Shown here in pieces: positions 16,771 to 34,775 of a stretch of 64,000 bases of DNA. How positions within the stretch are numbered: the first letter of the stretch is position 1; each line of letters starts with the position of its first letter. The notes under the pieces are model-generated. The model made no database searches and was not told the DNA's origin. It was given only the letters and a program-made list of their open reading frames with translations. The position numbers were made by a program, and so were the translations under genes. This stretch comes from Candidatus Sungiibacteriota bacterium (GTDB lineage Bacteria > Patescibacteriota > Minisyncoccia > Sungbacterales > HO2-52-23): NCBI GenBank assembly GCA_016432465.1, contig CP066690.1, positions 57,233 to 121,232 on the forward strand, read 5' to 3'.

Positions 16771-17482
16771 TTTTTAGTTGATTAACCGCAGTTTGAATAT
16801 CGAAACTATTAAAAATATAAGCTCCGGCCACAAGCAAATTAGCCCCTGATTCAACGGCTTTTTTGGCTGTTTCGGGGTTTATCCCCCCATCTACCTCTAT
16901 TATACACCCGGGGCAGGATTTGCGAATGTGGATAATTTTATCGTAAATTTCTTCCTGTATTTGCTGGCCAGAAGGGCCGGGGTGAACGGCCAAAGTCTGA
17001 TAGATATCAACTTTTTTAAACCATGGCTCAAGCTTTCCCCAAAATGTTTCCGGGTTTATAGCTAAACCTACTTCTACATCGGCCTCACGGCATTTTTTAA
17101 CAATCAAGTCTATGTCGGATACGGCTTCCAAATGGACAATGACGCGTTTTATTGGTTTAACCAGCCATTGGTCAATAACTTTCTCCGGTTCGCTGACCAT
17201 CAAATGAACCTCTACATTCAACTTTGTATCCAAAAGTGGCAAATCCGCAGGATTGTGCCACGTTAAATGTTTAGAAAAAATGCCATCCGTAACATCAAGG
17301 TGGCACCATTTAACATAGGGCTCTACTTTTTTAACCCGTTCCTGCACCTCCTCAAAAGTGCGGACGTTGATGGAGGGGATAATTTCAATTCGGTTCAAAG
17401 TTATAAGTTTAAAGTTAAGGTTACAAGTTTTTAGTCTAAGTTTTAACCTTAACAATAAACTAAAAACTAAAACTTTGAACAT
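16751..17482 (-). CDS. rpe: ribulose-phosphate 3-epimerase
   Basis: RPE fold conservation (IIPSINV..., HLDVTDG, VHLMV, EVDGGI); annotated N-terminal 30 aa are encoded by a palindromic repeat, true start probably near 17388 (TTG). Confidence 0.8.
   Translation of the reverse strand: MFKVLVFSLLLRLKLRLKTCNLNFKLITLNRIEIIPSINVRTFEEVQERVKKVEPYVKWCHLDVTDGIFSKHLTWHNPADLPLLDTKLNVEVHLMVSEPEKVIDQWLVKPIKRVIVHLEAVSDIDLIVKKCREADVEVGLAINPETFWGKLEPWFKKVDIYQTLAVHPGPSGQQIQEEIYDKIIHIRKSCPGCIIEVDGGINPETAKKAVESGANLLVAGAYIFNSFDIQTAVNQLKNVSFTR
17392..17480. repeat. AT-rich nested-palindrome element (aagtttaaagttaagg... family)
   Basis: gttcaaagtt...aactttgaac and aagttaaggtt...aaccttaac arms; related copies inside 23S gene. 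Confidence 0.6.
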
Positions 17483-17493
17483 TAAACATTAAA

Positions 17494-17949
17494 CTATCGA
17501 AAATTATGCTCCTCAATCTCCTCAATTTTCTTGAGCCGCCTAATGTGCCTTTCCTCACCACTAAAACTCTTTCCCAACCACACAGTCACAATATCTTTTG
17601 CCTCTTCCGACTCCAGCCAATCCGAGGCAAGAATCAAAACATTAGCATCCTCGTGTTCACGTGATTGCGCCGCAACCTGCCGGTTAAAGCATAAAGCCGC
17701 CCGAATGGAGCGGTATTTATCGGCAACCATATTCATTCCGTGCCCGGAGCCGCAAATAAAAATCCCCTTATGCAATGACGGGTTCTCTGCTATCTTTTCA
17801 GATGCCTCACGAGCAAAATCCACATAATCGTCATCTTTGTCGTAAGAAAATGCGCCCACGTCCTCAACCTCGTGTCCCTGCTCAACTAAATATTTTTTAA
17901 GCTCTTCTTTTAGCTTAAACCCCCTGTGGTCCGCGGCAAAGTAGATCAT
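17494..17949 (-). CDS. rpiB: ribose-5-phosphate isomerase B
   Basis: MIYFAADHRGFKLKEEL... and CGSGHGM motif of RpiB/LacAB family. Confidence 0.85.
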   Translation of the reverse strand: MIYFAADHRGFKLKEELKKYLVEQGHEVEDVGAFSYDKDDDYVDFAREASEKIAENPSLHKGIFICGSGHGMNMVADKYRSIRAALCFNRQVAAQSREHEDANVLILASDWLESEEAKDIVTVWLGKSFSGEERHIRRLKKIEEIEEHNFR

Positions 17950-21325: not shown

Positions 21326-21713
21326 AGTTCGGAATGCGAAACCAAACTTAACTTGGCGAGTCTCACCATATATTTTTGAGAAACTTCTCAAAAATTTATA
21401 GGCGGGCAGGTAATTAATGATCTATTAGTATCGCTCGGCTAAACGCATTGCTGCGCTTACACCTGCGACCTATCAACGTAGTCATCTTCTACGGATCTAA
21501 TACTAGCGGACATCAGAAATCGGAGATCGGAAATCAGAAAAGTTCTGACGTCTGATTTCTGAAATCTGAAGTCCGCTAGTTCGATACCTAATCTTGAGGC
21601 GTGCTTCGCACTTATATGCTTTCAGCGCTTATCACAACCGAACATAGCTACCCAGCGGTGCTCCTGGCGGAACAGCTGGTACACCAGAGGTTCGTTCATC
21701 CCGGTCCTCTCGT

Positions 21714-22354
21714 CACATTTTCTTCTATCACTAGAAGTGTAGACTATATCTTTGCCCCTTTGGATTTTGATCTAAAGTCGGGCATCGGCATATTATAATC
21801 AAGAATTTTCTTGACTATCCGTCCCGGCAATGCCGGGAACAAGTCGTTACGGGGTCATATTGACAAATTCTAGTATATCATGTAATAATGATATCGCCGA
21901 AATGAAAGGAGGACTCATGGCCCGAGAGTTGGTCGTTGACATGTTCTATTCAACGATTAAGACACCATGGATTACCTGCGATAAGTGTGGCTTTAAAGCA
22001 AAACAGTCAGATCTCAGATATGACGGATATTATAAGGATCATTCTGGTTTTAACCACCATTTTCACTGTCCAAGGTGTTATGAGTCTATTTTAATACCAA
22101 GCCTTTTATAGGCGGTATCATCAACCATTGCTCCTGACTTCCCGGGAGCATTTTTTTGTCAATTGACTTCCCACGGTATTAACTTTAGTATGTTTGATCG
22201 AAGTTCTCGGACCGCGAGATTTCTTCGCAAACTAAAGCATCCATGGCTAAGCCGAGTTTGACTCGGCCGCCATCCCGTCCCGCTTTTAGCGGGATTAGGG
22301 ACCGTTATTAGCCAAATTGTCATCGCGCATTACTGCGCGAAGTAGCAATACTTT
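21714..22354 (-). mobile_element. group-I-like intron in 23S at sarcin-ricin loop (exons rejoin to CCUAGU|ACGAGAGG)
   Basis: 5' exon ends in U, insertion ends in G, removal restores conserved CCUAGUACGAGAGGACC; 641 nt. Confidence 0.6.
21917..22111 (+). CDS. small zinc-ribbon protein encoded antisense inside 23S intron
   Basis: TTGACA-17-TAATAA promoter at 21860-21888, RBS aaaggagg 21905-21912, ATG 21917, CDKCG...CPRC motifs, hairpin+T7 terminator 22150-22178. Confidence 0.45.
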   Translation: MARELVVDMFYSTIKTPWITCDKCGFKAKQSDLRYDGYYKDHSGFNHHFHCPRCYESILIPSLL

Positions 22355-22405
22355 ACTAGGGACGACCCCTCTCAAGTATCAACGCCTGTGGTAGATAGGA
22401 GACCA

Positions 22406-22509: not shown

Positions 22510-23130
22510 GTATGTTCGCTTCGCTCACAACGCGATACCAATATACGAATGGCATGCGAATGATACGAATTGCGAATTTCCTCTATTACTAGAGGCATGG
22601 ACTATATCTTCATCCCCCTGCATGCCTGCGGAAGGAGCTCGCGTATTATATTTTGCTTAAAGCAAAATATCTTTCCGAACTTTATTCGGAAAAGTCTCTA
22701 CGGGGTTAATGCTTTTTTTATAGAAGCTCTGGTTTCAGCAAACTTAGCGACATCTTGAATAGCTTGCTGAATTTCAGTTTCAATAATATCAACCGGTCGT
22801 TTCCCTGAATCAATCTCCGCATCAGTCCAATTTCTACGACCAATCGGGTCTTCCAATTGTTGAAGTCGTGCAACGAGCCTTGACGATGCCTCGCTCAACA
22901 AAAGATTATTTTCTTCCAATTGATTCAGAAGTTCTTGGTTGTTTAATTGTAATTCTTCTTTCATATGCATAACTTCCCTCGGTATTATCCTATCAAATTT
23001 GGTTCAAAAACTCAATAGGATTTCACCGATATTAGCGAGATTTTTATGCAGGATTACTCCTGCAGCACCCCGATGATCGTGATGGCCAGTCACGTGCAAA
23101 CTAGTTAACCAGAGAACTAGCTAACTAATA
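22510..23130 (-). mobile_element. intervening sequence in 23S near the conserved ...CACCUC/GAUGUCGG... peptidyl-transferase segment (intron class undetermined)
   Basis: conserved GGCACCUC and GAUGUCGGCUC exon blocks separated by ~620 nt; boundaries lack canonical group I/II termini. Confidence 0.5.
22698..22970 (-). CDS. small coiled-coil protein encoded within 23S intervening sequence (sense to rRNA)
   Basis: 90-aa ORF with RBS gagggaag; heptad-rich; no HE motifs. Confidence 0.35.
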   Translation of the reverse strand: MHMKEELQLNNQELLNQLEENNLLLSEASSRLVARLQQLEDPIGRRNWTDAEIDSGKRPVDIIETEIQQAIQDVAKFAETRASIKKALTP

Positions 23131-23511
23131 AACTATTGTTGAGGTGCCGAACTCCGCCGTCGATATGAACTCTTGGGCGGAACTAGCCTGTTATCCCCAG
23201 AGTAGCTTTTGTCTGATAATCTTTGGCCTTGTTCTAGAAAGCGATAAATACCCACACCTCGGAACTGAATCCGAAGCGTGAATAATTACCATGGCCATCG
23301 GTTCACTAAGCTCTGCTTTCGCACCTGCGCGGGATATCCCCCTTGCAGTCAAGCCGGCTTGTGCCTTTACACGTCCACCCCGATTTCCATCCGGGGTAAG
23401 CCGACCTTAATAGACCACTCCATTACTTTTTGGGAGTGTAGTGCCCCACCAAAACTGCCCACCAGACACTGTTCCAGTTGGGCTTCACCGCGAAGCCCAC
23501 AGTTAAGTTTA

Positions 23512-23640
23512 AGGTTAAAAGTTTATTGTTAAGGTTGTGAGTTGTTAGTTTAAGTTAATGTTTAACCTAAACCAAAAACTTACAACCTAAACTTACAGGT
23601 TGCCAGAGCAACCGAAACTTTAAACTTAAAACTGTCGTGT
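23512..23640. repeat. AT-rich nested-palindrome element inside 23S
   Basis: gttaaggttgtgag...tttaagttaatgtttaacctaaac... related to 25185, 27305, 27843 copies. Confidence 0.55.
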
Positions 23641-24027
23641 GAACACTGCGGTGTTCCCAACCGGTTAGAATTTAAAACTTCAAAGAGTGGTATTTCACTG
23701 ACGGCTCCTCTTGATCCGGAAACCAAGAATCAAAGCCTGCCACCTATGCTACGCATCAAAGTTCTAAACCCAATATCAAGTTGCAGTAAAGCTTCTGGGG
23801 TCTTTTCGTCTAACCACAGGTATCCGGCATCTTCACCGGAATTGTATTTTCACCGGGCTCCTCGTTGAGACAGTCCCCTAGTCGTTACGCCTTTCGTGCG
23901 CTTCAGAACTTACCTGAAAAGGAATTGCGCTCAATTACGTTATCACCGAGCACTCAATTTTGGATTTGACAAAATTGTCAAAATTGGTTATGTTGAATAT
24001 GGTACGTTCTACCTACTGGAGGTAAAC

Positions 24028-24237
24028 ATGAAGTTCAAGGACTTGGAGATTGGGGATCATTTTGTTCTCCCAAACCATATCCCAACCAGGAACGGTATCC
24101 CTTCACCCATCGATGCTGTACAGCTTGAGGTTTTTCGTAGGATCACCACTCATGGACGCATTAACGTGCTGTCCGTAAAATCTTTGGCTCCAGGATACGT
24201 TAACCATAACGCTCCGGTCATCAAACTTATCATGTGA
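24028..24237 (+). CDS. small protein (69 aa) encoded antisense inside the L1931 intron
   Basis: TTGACA(23966-23971)-17-TATGTT promoter, RBS ggaggt 24018-24023, ATG 24028, stop 24237, hairpin gccaccgccggtggc + TTTTT 24242-24262; cassette bounded by perfect 18-nt inverted repeat 23946-23963 / 24270-24287. Confidence 0.45.
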   Translation: MKFKDLEIGDHFVLPNHIPTRNGIPSPIDAVQLEVFRRITTHGRINVLSVKSLAPGYVNHNAPVIKLIM

Positions 24238-24348
24238 TTTCGCCACCGCCGGTGGCATTTTTAAATAATCCAAAATTGAGTGCTCGGATCCTCTATGTCG
24301 CCATAGAGATCGGACTATATCTTACAAACAGAAGTCAGGTGTTGGAAA

Positions 24349-24912
24349 TCAGAAGTCAGAATGCTTCCGACTTCCAATATCCGATGTCTGATATCTGTTG
24401 TTCTGGCGTATAGTCTCTGAGGATTCAAGATATTGAGATGGTTTCTTACGATTCATTTGCTCTACTGTCCTCGCAATTTCTTTCATACCCTTCTTGGTTA
24501 GATGGATTTTCCGTTCCATCATATCAAGAATTTTTATGAATCGTTTGAAGTCACTTTGTTTTGCAGTACGGAGCGGATATTTCTGAAAGAAAGGAATTAT
24601 TTTCTCACGTATATCTTTCGTAGACCTAACACAATAACGATATAGCGGTTCACGGTGATTATCGTAACGCTTATTGATGAAAATTTTTCCGCAGCCGAAG
24701 AATTTTTGTAATTCTTCAAGAGCGAATAAACTTTTTTCACCTTGCGTTACCACAAACTCCGGAAAAACCTGCCATCCATTTTTAAGAATCCTATTACGAA
24801 AGACTCCTACAGAGAAACATCCTTCTCCGTCTACAAAACCAGTTATCCATCCCAAATAATAATCTTGCCTTTCCTGCTGATTATCTGCACTGGACACATT
24901 TTTACTTGGCAT
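24349..24912 (-). CDS. LAGLIDADG homing endonuclease (single-motif type)
   Basis: LGWITGFVDGEGCF dodecapeptide motif, 187 aa, inside intron and sense to rRNA. Confidence 0.85.
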   Translation of the reverse strand: MPSKNVSSADNQQERQDYYLGWITGFVDGEGCFSVGVFRNRILKNGWQVFPEFVVTQGEKSLFALEELQKFFGCGKIFINKRYDNHREPLYRYCVRSTKDIREKIIPFFQKYPLRTAKQSDFKRFIKILDMMERKIHLTKKGMKEIARTVEQMNRKKPSQYLESSETIRQNNRYQTSDIGSRKHSDF

Positions 24913-25184
24913 AATTTTAGAAGATTTTATCCCCTAAGGATAATTATACCTTAGTAGTGCCAGATACTCCAGACTTTCCAGCATATAGTCCCGACGTTTC
25001 ATCTAAAAATTAGGATGAAGAAGTCGGGATCCCGATTTTACACTATGATTATTTTATAAATAGTGCATCGGGACCAGATTTTATTAAAGCAGCGCGCTTT
25101 CTACTTTAAGACCCTTATAGTTAGGGCCGACATTGACGAGGGCTTGATACCTAGAGCCGCGAGGCGGCCTCGTATGTTTATAAG

Positions 25185-25325
25185 TTTGTAGTTAAAAGTT
25201 TTGAGTTTAAGTTAAAAGTGATTAGTTTAAGTTAACGTTAACCTAAACATTAAACTAAAAACTTAAACTTAGGAGGCCGCTAGGCCGGAACCTAGAACTA
25301 AAAACTATAAACTAATCGAGGTCGC
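25185..25325. repeat. AT-rich nested-palindrome element inside 23S (near E. coli ~1860)
   Basis: ...gtttaagttaaaagtgattagtttaagttaacgttaacctaaac...cttaggaggccgctaggccggaacc... Confidence 0.6.
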
Positions 25326-26151
25326 CCCGCGACCAAGGTATTTAACCTTCTCGCATTGGTCAGGCGTCACCCCCCATACATCCTCTTACGAGTTAGCGGG
25401 GAGCTGTGTTTTTGGTAAACAGTCGCCAGGGGTACTTTTGTTGCAGCCCCTAAGCCCTTGCGGGCCGGGGCAGACCTTATTGCGAACTTACGGTCGCTTT
25501 TTTGCCGAGTTCCTTAACGAGGAATCACCCATTCGCCTTAGTGTTCTCCACCAACCCACCTGTGTCGGTTTACGGTACGGTCGCATGCTGATATTTTAGA
25601 CGGTTTTCTGGGAAACGCGCTTTGCAAAATTTCTAATGGATTGCTCCAAAAGATTTTCTCCGCGCTTGGAACCGAGCATTACCTCCATGGACGGATTTTC
25701 CTATCCACGTTCCTTACGCTAAGAACGAAAATCCAATAATTCGCTTTGCATACTGCGTTCCGTTACGCCATCAAAACAACATGCGGTGCTGGAATATTAA
25801 CCAGCTGTCCATCAGCTACGGCTTTCGCCATTGCCTTAGGACCGACTAACCCTCAGTTGATTGCCATTGCTGAGGAAACCTTGGGTTTTCGGCGGTCCGG
25901 GCTTTCACCGGACTTGCGGTTACTTGTGCCAACATTCTCTCTTCTTAACGCTCCAGTCGCCCTCGCGGGTCAACCTTCACTGCATTAAGAATGCTCTTCT
26001 ACTGCTTGCGCAACTGCCAATTGCCAACCGCTAACTCTTAATTTTTATTAGAAATTAGAAGTTAGAAATTCGAAGTTGCGCAAGCCCGTAGCTTCGGTAC
26101 AACGCTTAGCCCCGAGTATCTTTGGTGCAGTGTCTCTAGACGAGTGAGCTG

Positions 26152-26194
<43 letters not shown>

Positions 26195-26923
26195 CGCTGT
26201 TTGAGAAACTCCACCGCCTTATTACACTTAGCGTTGATTTAGGGACCTTAGCTGACGATCTGGGCTGTTGCCCTCTTGCACGATGGAGCTTAGCCCCCAC
26301 CTGCTGACTCTTGGAATAACTATACGCGCATTCGGAGTTTGGTTGGTTCGCCGAGCTTTCGCCCTTACGAACCATCCAGTAGCTCTACCTCGCGTATCGT
26401 ATAATCCAAGGCTAGCCCAAAAGCTATTTCGAAGAGAACCAGCTATTACCAGATTCGATTAGCTTTTCACTCCTTACCACAGGTCATCCGAAGGCGTTGA
26501 ACGACCCACCGGTTCGGGCCTCCCCCCGATGTTACTCGGGGTTCACCCTGCCCATGGCAAGCTCATCTGGCTTCGGGTCTTTTGAATACTACCTACAAAA
26601 GCTTCTTAGCTTATAGCTTCCTAGCTTCCTAGGAACGAAAATAAACTCGCACCTAAAAAGCTAAGAAGCTAAAAAGCTAGAAAGCTATTGAAAACGCGCT
26701 ATTAACACTCGGTTTCCCTACGACTCGGTGCCTCGCGGCACTTAGTCAAGCAGTATCCAAAAACTCGTTGGCTCATTCTTCAATAGGCACCACAGCAGAG
26801 ATCAGAGGTCGGATGTCGGAAATCAGAATTTTAGTTCCGACTTCTGATTTCCGATCTCTGATCTCCTTTGTGTCCTTGTAAGCATATGGTTTCAGGTACT
26901 ATTTCACCGCCCTCACCGGGCTG

Positions 26924-26962
<39 letters not shown>

Positions 26963-27304
26963 GTTCCGGGAGTATTTAGCCTTGGCGGACTAGTTCCGCC
27001 TGCTTCCTGCCCAGTCTCCATACGGGGCAGTACTCAAGAACCCCGACGCACTATTAGAAATCTAACAATGAAGTCGGGGTCCCGACTTTACGTCGGGATA
27101 ATAACTAGGAGCATGCAATATTTTTCAAATACGGGGCTTTCACCCTCTTTGGCCGGCCTTTCCAGGGCCGTTCTTCTAAATAAATCGCAACTTTTTGCTC
27201 CTTCGGATCGCTCCGAGCGCTATTATCTTACAACCTCCCGGTCTCCATTAAATAAATTCAATAGAAACCGGGATTTGGGCTGATCCCTTTTCGCTCGCCG
27301 CTAC

Positions 27305-27450
27305 TGGGGGAATATATCAGTTTATAGTTAAAGGTTTTAAGTTTAAGTTAAAAGTTATTAGTTTAAGTTAGCGTTAACTTAAACTTTAAACTAAAAACTT
27401 AAACTTAGGAGGCCGTTAGGCCGTAACCTAAAACTAAAAACTGACATTCT
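27305..27450. repeat. AT-rich nested-palindrome element inside 23S (near E. coli ~200)
   Basis: ~95% identical to copy at 27843-27975. Confidence 0.65.
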
Positions 27451-27507
27451 TTTCTTTTCCTCCGCTTACTGAGATGTTTCACTTCAGCGGGTATCGCGCC
27501 AAGCACT

Positions 27508-27695
27508 CATTTCTATACACTTGACAAATTTATAAATATAAACTATGCTAAGATCAACCAAGGGGGTTTGGTTACAACCACCGATAGCCTGGCCCGGTCC
27601 TACCGGACTTCCCAGGCCGCTGGTTGGTTAGACCCCCCTGCCACAGGTTTTCCCTGTGGCCTCTTTTTTGAGTACAGAAATGAGTGCTCGGCGAA
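27508..27695 (+). promoter_or_regulatory. antisense promoter-terminator cassette within 23S 5' domain expansion helix
   Basis: IR cgccaagcactcatttct / agaaatgagtgctcggcg flanks TTGACA(27531)-17-TATGCT and hairpin ccacaggttttccctgtgg + CCTCTTTTTT (27636-27668); no ORF with RBS. Confidence 0.4.
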
Positions 27696-27842
27696 TGCGT
27701 TTTACGCAAACGGGTTTCCCCATTCGGACATCGCCGGATCAAAGGTTGCTCGCCACCTCCCCGACGCTTATCGCAGGCACGCCACGTCCTTCATCGCCTC
27801 CGGAACCCTAGGCATCCACCATATGCTCTTAATTAATTCTGT

Positions 27843-27975
27843 TCATAGTTAAAGGTTCTAAGTTTAAGTTAAAAGTTATTAGTTTAAGTTAGCGTTAACT
27901 TAAACTTTAAACTAAAAAACTTGAACTTAGGAGTCTCGCTGTAAGCGGGACGAAACCTGAAACTAAGAACTGATT
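27843..27975. repeat. AT-rich nested-palindrome element in 23S 5' leader
   Basis: near-identical to 27305-27450 copy. Confidence 0.65.
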
Positions 27976-34317: not shown

Positions 34318-34403
34318 GCTGATGTTGTCTAAATTTATGAGCGAGAATAGATGCCGAGCGTAATAAATTTAGCTACAACATCGAGCACCCTCTCACTCGA
34401 AAA

Positions 34404-34775
34404 TCAACTGAATAAACTATGTTTCAGCCGACGTTTTAAACTAATGTAGGCCTTTGCTCTAAATTTAATCTGTGACTCCCGCTCACGAGCATCTTTCTCA
34501 GACCTGTAGGCCTCGTAATAAATACACTCCAAGGGTCTTCTATTTCTAGTGGAATACACCCTACCCTCATTATGCTCTTTTATTCGTTTACGTAAATCCC
34601 CAGTGTATCCAAAATATAAGTTTTTATCCTTCAGAGATTGCAAAGTGTAGAAATAAAACATAGTGATTTTCGAGTGAGAGGGTAAGGTTTTGTTACCAAA
34701 ATTTGTTCGTCCTACAGACTCCAAATTTTGGACAAAGCCCTTATTAAACAACCTCGCTTTGATAGCACTGCTCAT
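34404..34775 (-). CDS. GIY-YIG nuclease family protein
   Basis: LYFGYTGDLRKRIKEHNEG (GIY...YIG...R...H...E); true start probably internal Met (MFYFYTLQS...). Confidence 0.7.
   Translation of the reverse strand: MSSAIKARLFNKGFVQNLESVGRTNFGNKTLPSHSKITMFYFYTLQSLKDKNLYFGYTGDLRKRIKEHNEGRVYSTRNRRPLECIYYEAYRSEKDARERESQIKFRAKAYISLKRRLKHSLFS

Follow-up and report, generated by a model that had tools for sequence, protein, structure and literature searches.

An antisense cassette with its own expression signals in a group I intron of the sarcin-ricin loop in a Candidatus Sungiibacteriota 23S rRNA gene

We analysed a 64,000-nucleotide (nt) stretch of the genome of Candidatus Sungiibacteriota bacterium (Patescibacteriota; assembly GCA_016432465.1, contig CP066690.1, positions 57,233 to 121,232), referred to here as the window and numbered from its first base, and found that an intron in its 23S ribosomal RNA (rRNA) gene carries a gene-like unit oriented against the rRNA. 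The intron, which interrupts the sarcin-ricin loop (SRL), is an ordinary member of a group I intron family specific to the Candidate Phyla Radiation (CPR). Its P6 loop holds a cassette of about 300 bp with a promoter, a ribosome-binding site, a small open reading frame (ORF) of 64 codons and a terminator, all antisense to the rRNA. What appears to be an independent, backward-transcribed gene can thus take over the homing-endonuclease slot in an rRNA intron of CPR bacteria. This antisense gene is a rare variant of the intron family and apparently an entry to a recurrent, undescribed class of cassettes; in the literature searched, such promoter-ORF-terminator cassettes lying antisense in CPR rRNA genes were not described, a provisional result because literature coverage is incomplete.

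The antisense cassette

The distance between the two sequences that anchor P6, ACCGTGGGAAGT and GACCCCGTAACGACT, is 17–27 nt in intron family members that lack an ORF, about 461 nt in members with a LAGLIDADG gene, and 309 nt in the window. Comparison of the window intron with its relatives by blastn revealed conservation at intron positions 1–200 and 470–641, and none between. The loop is closed by a stem in which GUCAAUUGACAAA pairs with UUUGUCAAU(A)UGAC (13 bp with one bulge), and the minimum free energy (MFE) and centroid folds of the 326-nt hairpin agree on this pairing.

Within the loop, the plus strand presents a sigma-70-type promoter, a Shine-Dalgarno (SD) sequence, the 64-codon ORF with its four cysteines, and an intrinsic terminator (Table 1). 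A preliminary description, made from the sequence by a model, had listed the same parts, and the SD sequence AAAGGAGG, the CxxC…CxxC ORF and the hairpin followed by T7 were all read where it had placed them on the plus strand. Its promoter, TTGACA-17-TAATAA, stands as to location and -35 box, but the scan prefers an 18-nt spacer and AATAAT, one base later. Read on the rRNA strand, the terminator region is A7 followed by a hairpin and is not a terminator, and a signal scan of the SRL intron found nothing terminator-like on that strand.

As a control for chance, 231 CPR rRNA insertions were scanned blind for the combination of promoter, SD-preceded ORF and terminator. The scan returned six antisense ORF calls, corresponding to four distinct units (two in the window and one each in the SRL introns L103 and L113), and one sense unit. 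No full unit occurred in any of 1155 shuffled sequences.

We also considered whether the cassette is a degraded LAGLIDADG gene. This origin was rejected, as neither a protein profile of 67 family ORFs, run in six frames, nor a DNA profile of the loops found a LAGLIDADG remnant in the window intron, yet profiles did find truncated remnants in the loci L027, L029 and L058. The cassette therefore fills the homing-endonuclease slot with no detectable derivation from that gene.

Location of the intron and its family

Matches to the Rfam large subunit rRNA (LSU) and 5S models, together with blastn against E. coli 23S rRNA, place the 23S and 5S genes on the minus strand of the window. A 16S rRNA gene is absent from these 64 kb, and is apparently not adjacent to the 23S gene. 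Mapping of the minus strand by blastn against a fetched E. coli 23S gene yielded collinear exons separated by three large interruptions, at 25100–23932 (about position 1931), 23140–22511 (about position 2500) and 22354–21714. Excision of the last of these regenerates CCUAGU/ACGAGAGGACC (here and below the slash marks the splice junction), with U as the base before the intron and G (21714) as the final intron base, and the spliced 23S junction would read CCUAGU-ACGAGAGG. The fetched E. coli copy is 2 nt shorter upstream, its AGUACGAGAGGACC beginning at 2652, which is A2654 in standard numbering. Since AGUACGAGAGGACC starts at A2654, the junction lies between U2656 and A2657, within the bulged-G motif of the SRL.

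These results agree with the preliminary description, which had proposed a 641-nt intron inside the SRL with this junction and these terminal bases; alignment to E. coli 23S does not place the insertion outside the SRL, and the complete group I core with family-typical helices identifies it as an intron. It was mistaken, however, in taking the SRL for a site not known among 23S introns. Position 2657 (23IS14) has been published by Tsurumaki et al. (2024) as one of the frequent group I intron sites of CPR bacteria, mostly with LAGLIDADG_1 ORFs, and is unreported in other bacteria according to the same survey, in which six-frame translation was done and only ORFs with Pfam domains were described (PMC11270868). 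The intron and its SRL site are already documented and form the routine part of the present finding.

We scanned one genome per GTDB species for the pattern AGATATAGTC, 15–45 nt, G/ACGAGAGGACCGG and obtained at least 120 loci; among the matches listed, nearly all were Patescibacteria. The identical junction (…YAGU/A…; the 5' side is also placeable) occurs in at least 112 species genomes or loci. Intron lengths among the matches listed (n=112) fall into 23 introns of 230–400 nt, 77 of 700–890 nt, and 12 of intermediate length that include the window intron. The long introns hold a sense ORF of about 159 amino acids (aa), which Pfam identified as LAGLIDADG_1 in both relatives checked, and in about two thirds of the listed SRL introns the P6 loop is occupied by a LAGLIDADG gene in sense orientation. 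Among sense ORFs in rRNA insertions (SRL introns with LAGLIDADG ORFs, L002–L121), a promoter-like site scoring at least 9/12 lies upstream in 33 of 106, compared with 7.4 predicted from shuffled sequences, which suggests that intron endonuclease genes may also possess promoters of their own inside the intron.

The insertion point and the core sequences place the window intron in the 23IS14 family. It resembles the published 23IS14 introns in that insertion point, the GCUA guide, the GNRA-looped P2, the ACGGU/ACCGU P4, P6 (GGGAAGUC…GACCCC), J8/7-P7 (AAGAUAUAGUC) and the use of the P6 loop as a cargo site, but differs in having no LAGLIDADG gene or remnant, in carrying instead an antisense 64-aa ORF with its own expression signals, and in an extra insert of about 58 nt adjoining P4 (PMC11270868).

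The Rfam LSU match to the window is called complete at 23046–27842, whereas the exons run on to about 21424 on the minus strand. The match thus stops about 1.6 kb short of the actual 3' end, at 23046, and leaves about 400 nt of 23S sequence, the SRL among it, outside. Automatic annotation of the 23S 3' end will be wrong here, and users of such annotation should be warned.

Structure of the intron

The window intron was aligned with 19 ORF-less relatives using MAFFT, base pairs were counted over 103 family members on the MAFFT alignment with long P6 loops trimmed, and a consensus was obtained with RNAalifold. Helices P1, P4, P6 and P7 are invariant in the family, and P2, P3, P6a, P8 and P9 covary (Table 1). 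In P1, exon UAGU pairs with the guide GCUA (22343–22346), with a U.G wobble at the splice site, and all four pairs are present in 99–100 of 100 members. The P6 layout of the family is GGG-AA-GUC…/…GAC-CCC. By inspection, the pair of hairpins that separates P7 from the 3' strand of P3 appears to be a subgroup-IA-like feature. UGGCUAA (22307–22313) could pair with the UUAGCCA that ends the insert of about 58 nt, in competition with P3.

The Rfam group I model (RF00028) aligned poorly to the window intron and scored 23.2 bits (E = 0.0013 on 771 nt), short of the gathering score of 50; the other two introns of the 23S gene also scored below 50 bits (34.1 and 31.7). The one at about position 2500 (22511–23140, minus strand; 31.7 bits) is a group I intron with a sense, coiled-coil-like ORF of 90 aa (22698–22970), which matches no endonuclease family and is followed by a weak terminator-like site on the rRNA strand (22693–22671). 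We infer that the SRL intron splices, because its core is intact and the SRL cannot work with 641 extra bases or a break. Excision and exon rejoining would be required for a working ribosome.

Table 1. Positions of the SRL intron, its cassette and related features (window coordinates; + is the strand antisense to the rRNA)
Feature	Position	Strand	Details and evidence
Group I intron, 641 nt	21714–22354	-	23S U2656/A2657; CPR "L2656 / 23IS14" family; exon mapping and shared junction
5' exon end CCUAGU	22355–22360	-	Plus strand actagg
3' exon start ACGAGAGGACC	21703–21713	-	A2657 to C2667, GAGA tetraloop included; plus strand ggtcctctcgt
P2 hairpin UCGCGCA-GUAA-UGCGCGA (GNRA loop)	22323–22340	-	Strong covariation, 4–6 pair types per position, 101 sequences
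P3 5' strand UUGGC	22311–22315	-	Partner GCCGA at 21785–21789; covarying pairs (UA/GC/AU/CG; CG/UA); in RNAalifold consensus
P4 5' strand ACGGU	22301–22305	-	Partner ACCGU at 22173–22177; canonical in 101/101
Two-hairpin insertion, ~58 nt	22244–22300	-	Between P4 5' strand and J4/5; columns unique to the window against 19 ORF-less relatives
P6 5' half and extension GGG-AA-GUCAAUUGACAAA	22155–22172	-	P6/P6a invariant or covarying; closes the cassette in MFE and centroid folds
P6 stem 3' half UUUGUCAAUAUGAC-CCC	21851–21867	-	Plus strand of the segment includes the -35 box
P7 5' strand A(C)GACU	21842–21847	-	Partner AGUCU at 21741–21745; canonical in 103/103, including the G-C pair of the guanosine-binding site
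J8/7 AAAGAUAU	21746–21753	-	
Two hairpins between P7 and P3 3' strand (P7.1, P7.2)	21795–21838	-	Read from sequence; relatives variable at the same place
P8 hairpin	21754–21783	-	Covarying pairs
P9 hairpin CUUCUA-GUGA-UAGAAG (GNRA loop)	21722–21737	-	Strong covariation; intron-terminal G at 21714
Promoter, sigma-70-type, TTGACA, 18-nt spacer, AATAAT, TG upstream (extended -10)	21860–21889	+	-35 at 21860–21865, -10 at 21884–21889, TG at 21881–82; 11/12, top site in the 4-kb region scanned
Shine-Dalgarno AAAGGAGG	21905–21912	+	4 nt upstream of ATG
ORF, 64 aa and stop; CDKC…CPRC, four-cysteine zinc-ribbon candidate	21917–22111	+	ATG 21917, stop 22109–22111; C21xxC24 and C51xxC54
Intrinsic terminator, 8-bp stem, 6-nt loop, T7	22129–22157	+	Hairpin 22129–22150, T7 22151–22157
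Second antisense cassette, 69-aa ORF	23946–24287	+	Inside ~1931 intron (25100–23932); 19-bp perfect inverted repeat GAGCACTCAATTTTGGATT
Signals of the second cassette	23946–24287	+	TTGACA 23966, GGAGG 24019, ORF 24029–24237, terminator 24242–24256
Third antisense unit, 22-nt inverted repeat	27497–27693	+	23S insertion near E. coli 130–178; no contained ORF
Signals of the third unit	27497–27693	+	TTGACA-17-TATGCT 27521–27549, terminator 27640–27660 then T6, ~110 nt between
Palindromic repeats	17393–17495, 25204–25269, 27338–27408, 27858–27929; also 21502–21580, 26791–26872, 24320–24360		

Recurrence of antisense cassettes

The preliminary description had called an antisense gene in an rRNA intron unusual and had proposed a check for similar cassettes in other CPR rRNA introns. 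Such genes are indeed uncommon, at about five of the 112 SRL introns listed compared with about two thirds for LAGLIDADG genes, but they form a recurrent class and are no one-off. The same architecture was found in the SRL introns L028, L060, L103 and L113, which are among the listed SRL introns with non-LAGLIDADG P6 loops. In these, an antisense promoter beside the 3' arm of the stem (e.g. TTGACA-17-TAGTAT) is followed by a ribosome-binding site, a small ORF (65, 79, 82 and 83 aa, respectively) and a terminator directly adjoining the 5' arm. Of the four hosts, three bear the label Yanofskybacteria, and L103 is, among the loci listed, the nearest to the window by 23S exon identity (91–93%). 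Full units with an SD-preceded ORF were returned by the scan for the window and for 2 of 120 other loci, and those of L028 and L060 were recognized by inspection.

The 23S gene of the window itself contains two more antisense units in which inverted repeats enclose a promoter and a terminator (Table 1). The intron at about 1931 that holds the first of them also bears a sense LAGLIDADG_1 ORF at 24349–24912. The 69-aa ORF of this cassette has no homologue, and on host codon usage two other frames outscore its own. By eye, this cargo had seemed akin to the cargos of L142 and L153; the kinship was rejected, as the similarity is not significant.

The stems of L028, L113, L103 and the ~1931-site cassette of the window are alike (GC(A/T)C…A(A/T)(A/T)TTTTGG). 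L028 has a second cassette copy in the P8 loop of another intron, and L070 has a copy about 300 nt downstream of 23S. A scan of Joint Genome Institute (JGI) metagenomes for TCAAATTTTTGGANNNTTGAC yielded 97 loci, including 47 matches with an inverted partner 120–800 nt away. The resulting family consists of elements of about 160–620 bp with ends defined as …GCTCAAATTTTTGGA-NNN-TTGACA … terminator-TCCAAAAATTTGAGC…. In the end alignment, the left end reads …C(C/T)G(C/T)TCAAATTTTTGGA-NNN-TTGACA followed after about 17 nt by a TATAAT-like box, and the right end is a hairpin, a T-run and (A)ATCCAAAAATTTGAGCGG…. Ahead of the -35 box, this alignment also has a conserved A/T tract that resembles an UP element. 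Many elements show the P6 flanks ACGGGGTCA / GACTTCCC: counted on the end alignment, the left flank has the P6 sequence ACGGGG in 12 of 36 unique elements, and the right flank is often GACTTCCC. That the conserved-end motif is a phage feature was considered and rejected; five matches fell on viral contigs, and the two of them that were identified with metagenome loci (L229 with L147, L231 with L135) have no inverted partner.

The context of these elements is strongly biased. In or beside 16S or 23S genes lie 37 of the 47, and all 37 are antisense; of the remainder, one is located 1.3 kb upstream of 23S in the same direction and nine are on contigs without rRNA. Because the search pattern is blind to strand, the antisense bias is real. 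The elements occupy introns at 2656, 2593, about 2500 and 1917–1931, and are also inserted directly near E. coli positions 130–180 and 650–667. An SD-preceded ORF of at least 25 codons (29–97 aa) is kept in 41 of the 47. The 44 unique cargo ORFs are mutually unrelated by BLASTP save between close strains, and the small proteins encoded by 19 of them have one or two hydrophobic segments. Two orthologous cargo pairs gave ratios of non-synonymous to synonymous substitution rates (dN/dS) of 0.44 and 0.20, demonstrating purifying selection on two other cargo ORFs than that of the window. There are two CxxC…CxxC cargos, the 64-aa ORF of the window and a 52-aa ORF in L170 (1560–1882) and L177 (351–673), the latter in a conserved-end metagenome cassette that likewise lies in the P6 loop of an SRL intron. 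The two share the site and the putative fold class, but homology between them was rejected on comparison.

The SRL cassette of the window has the architecture of this family, namely an inverted repeat, a promoter inside the left arm, an SD sequence with a small ORF, and a terminator at the right arm, and like the family it is antisense to the rRNA in a site that can be removed at the RNA level. Profiles of the family ends (nhmmer) match the window at 27517–27568 (E = 4.6e-4) and 23953–24007 (E = 0.019), and the best window match of the left-end profile is the 27497–27693 unit.

The 64-codon ORF

Extensive searches returned no clear relative of the 64-aa ORF. A word-indexed search of 5.8 billion clusters found no homologue, exhaustive phmmer of 1.84 billion representative proteins gave one marginal match, to a repetitive eukaryote-like C2H2 protein, and a back-translated scan of the JGI metagenomes gave nothing. 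Exact look-ups of the 64-aa and 93-aa forms were without match, as were family searches in Pfam, PHROGs, PADLOC and NCBIfam and a search of PDB sequences. In tblastn against phages, the only match (E = 0.01) was to a Clostridium phage hypothetical protein. The top Pfam (E up to 1) and NCBIfam matches were zinc-ribbon families, all below cut-offs, and the HNH, His-Cys, GIY-YIG and LAGLIDADG families of Pfam were unmatched even at E = 1. AlphaFold2 without an alignment produced a beta-rich model of five strands (mean predicted local distance difference test (pLDDT) score 61), for which Foldseek against PDB returned generic zinc ribbons only, at E > 0.3 (best 0.35). The highest hydropathy over 19 residues is 0.43, with no membrane-like segment. 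The product would probably be a small nucleic-acid-binding zinc ribbon.

On host codon usage the ORF has a log-odds score of -0.04, which is the best of its six frames and equals the 95th percentile for windows read off frame. GC content is lower in the ORF (0.385) than in the window (0.465). From its composition, the ORF gives the impression of being foreign or young, provided that it is a gene at all. Strain variants were sought via the neighbouring EF-P and LAGLIDADG proteins, and only short Logan contigs, ending at the rRNA genes, were obtained. The same EF-P protein is present in sequencing runs SRR12113383–SRR12113431.

Discussion

We lean, with modest conviction, towards regarding the unit in the P6 loop as an intervening-sequence-like selfish or cargo cassette. 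The ribosome would then be unharmed, with the 13-bp stem re-closing P6 and the whole intron leaving the rRNA; the insertion would cost the ribosome nothing because splicing removes the cassette with the intron. Units of this kind would persist only in the antisense direction, because in the sense direction their terminator would end transcription before the 3' end of 23S and the 5S rRNA are made. The mRNA, spanning approximately 21896–22157, would be transcribed head-on to rRNA synthesis and then translated. Since it would face head-on transcription and be fully complementary to an abundant intron RNA, its expression should be low during rRNA synthesis and higher when rRNA synthesis falls. If expressed, such cassettes would supply very small genomes with lineage-specific micro-proteins, whose output would be tied to rRNA operon activity, and terminator polarity would provide a simple rule for which selfish DNA survives in rRNA genes.

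Several observations weigh against the selfish or cargo cassette. The 64-aa ORF scores below the 5th percentile of host genes in codon usage (host mean 0.29, standard deviation 0.13, 5th percentile 0.07), and no search found a homologue with which to gauge selection on it. The nhmmer profiles of both family ends miss the SRL cassette (21855–22170) and its flanks have no match in 230 fetched loci, so that its link to the conserved-end family is one of architecture only. Family elements of 162–185 nt, and the 27497–27693 unit of the window, have no ORF, indicating that the protein may not be the point. In the strain pair L060 and L129, all eight intron substitutions are inside the ORF, six of them non-synonymous and two synonymous, a neutral-looking pattern.

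Much of this would also suit an explanation in which the ORF is not a functional protein gene, the cassette is decaying or newly arisen, and any importance lies in the antisense RNA, in the promoter and terminator, or in the stem that they form. The orphan status of the ORF across proteins, clusters and metagenome DNA points that way, together with its host-unlike codon usage and GC content, the 69-aa ORF whose own frame is outscored by two others, the existence of ORF-less cassettes, and the L060/L129 changes. We nevertheless find it doubtful that no protein is involved: 64 codons (93 between stops) stand open in DNA of 39% GC, beginning 4 nt after a perfect AAAGGAGG and ending 17 nt before a terminator, most metagenome elements keep an SD-preceded ORF, dN/dS is well below 1 in both orthologous cargo pairs, and the shuffled sequences never produced a full unit. 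If a protein is made, it could be a harmful one in an addiction or dormancy module resembling type I toxin-antitoxin systems, its mRNA restrained by pairing with the intron or pre-rRNA and freed when rRNA transcription stops. Complementarity of the mRNA to the intron P6 loop is complete by construction, every rRNA-associated cassette is antisense, and the 19 hydrophobic cargos are type-I-toxin-like. The 64-aa ORF, however, would encode a soluble zinc ribbon and not a hydrophobic peptide, toxin and defence families are unmatched (Pfam, PADLOC, NCBIfam), loss of the intron would take toxin and antitoxin together and so allow no classical post-segregational killing, and the terminator explains the orientation bias more simply. 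Such a module is accordingly improbable in our estimation.

It is very unlikely, we think, that the 64-aa protein took the place of a lost LAGLIDADG gene and serves the intron, whether as a tiny homing endonuclease, as a mobility module that binds DNA or as a maturase, even though its ORF occupies precisely the homing-endonuclease slot and its CxxC…DH…N…H-CxxC pattern, by reading, recalls zinc-bound HNH motifs. The DH-to-N spacing is about 10 residues short of the beta-beta-alpha metal finger of the HNH motif, and on this spacing and the profile searches, in which HNH, His-Cys, GIY-YIG and LAGLIDADG remained unmatched at E = 1, an HNH identity was rejected. Foldseek offered only generic zinc ribbons for a low-confidence model, and the cargos found in this slot are mutually unrelated and in many cases membrane peptides. 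A role in the intron would fit the second, unrelated CxxC…CxxC cargo of 52 aa in the same loop and intron family, and the antisense homing-endonuclease genes known in nuclear rDNA group I introns (PMC9548176).

That the unit acts on the host, with its head-on promoter and the two others in the 23S gene throttling or sensing rRNA transcription and the ORF being secondary, strikes us as highly improbable. There are three antisense promoters scoring 10–11/12 in one 23S gene, the family -35 box has its UP-element-like tract upstream, and promoter and terminator are kept in the ORF-less versions. Such units are, however, missing from most CPR 23S genes, and they are distributed patchily, much as a selfish element would be.

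The selfish or cargo cassette can be extended into a broader proposal, which we hold to be unlikely as a whole. According to it, the cassettes would be a class of miniature elements with conserved inverted-repeat ends, a strong promoter and terminator of their own and a hypervariable ORF of 40–100 aa, located almost only in parts of rRNA genes that can be removed at the RNA level, namely group I intron loops and intervening-sequence helices, always antisense, with the SRL cassette among them, and would be rRNA-gated conditional genes rather than inert junk. The gating would operate through head-on collision and pairing with the sense RNA, and the products might be, for example, dormancy or addiction peptides or small nucleic-acid binders.

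By analogy, the cassette may work most like the classical 23S intervening sequence (IVS). The IVSs of Coxiella, Leptospira and Salmonella are a few hundred bases long, bounded by inverted repeats that pair into a long stem, contain a small ORF of doubtful function, and are regarded as selfish sequences removed at the RNA level (PMC4990558). Classical IVSs are excised by RNase III. Like them, the cassette forms an inverted-repeat stem in the precursor RNA (13 bp, in MFE and centroid folds) and has a small ORF, and members of its family also lie directly in 23S helices, near E. coli 130–180 and 650–667. In contrast, the S23p ORFs of IVSs are sense and without their own promoter or terminator, whereas the cassette is antisense, autonomous and not S23p, its family's ORFs are hypervariable, and the window copy is in an intron loop and not in helix 9, 25 or 45 (PMC4990558). 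The nuclear rDNA group I introns with antisense His-Cys-box genes (e.g. L2066) share with the cassette a gene on the opposite strand with its own expression signals, but those are eukaryotic, encode recognisable endonucleases, and have polymerase II signals and spliceosomal introns, unlike the bacterial 64-aa unit, which is without an endonuclease signature (PMC9548176). Provisionally, these eukaryotic nuclear His-Cys-box introns are the only rRNA group I introns for which antisense genes are on record (PMC9548176).

Type I toxin-antitoxin systems likewise combine a small ORF with an mRNA overlapped by a complementary RNA, and many family cargos are hydrophobic; here, the complementary RNA would be the rRNA precursor or intron, and the 64-aa ORF is not hydrophobic. 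The "morons" of phages are also self-contained promoter-ORF-terminator units in a tolerant site, but the cassette is not in a phage. Correia elements of Neisseria resemble it in their terminal inverted repeats, in carrying a promoter of their own and in forming a hairpin within the host transcript. They are without an ORF, whereas the cassette has one, is near-exclusive to rRNA operons and has a fixed orientation.

Other features of the window

Two palindromic repeat families, AGTTTAAGTTAAAAG… and ATCAGAAATCGGA…, make up hairpin expansions of the window 23S rRNA (Table 1), and the first of them also occurs beyond the rRNA gene, at about 17.4 kb. Outside the rRNA operon, a perfect 20-bp inverted repeat, ACCCTCTCACTCGAAAATCA, surrounds 257 bp at 34387–34683. 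This interval contains a minus-strand ORF of about 85 aa with a GIY-YIG domain (Pfam E = 7e-14), and appears to be a small nuclease cassette that the inverted repeats delimit.

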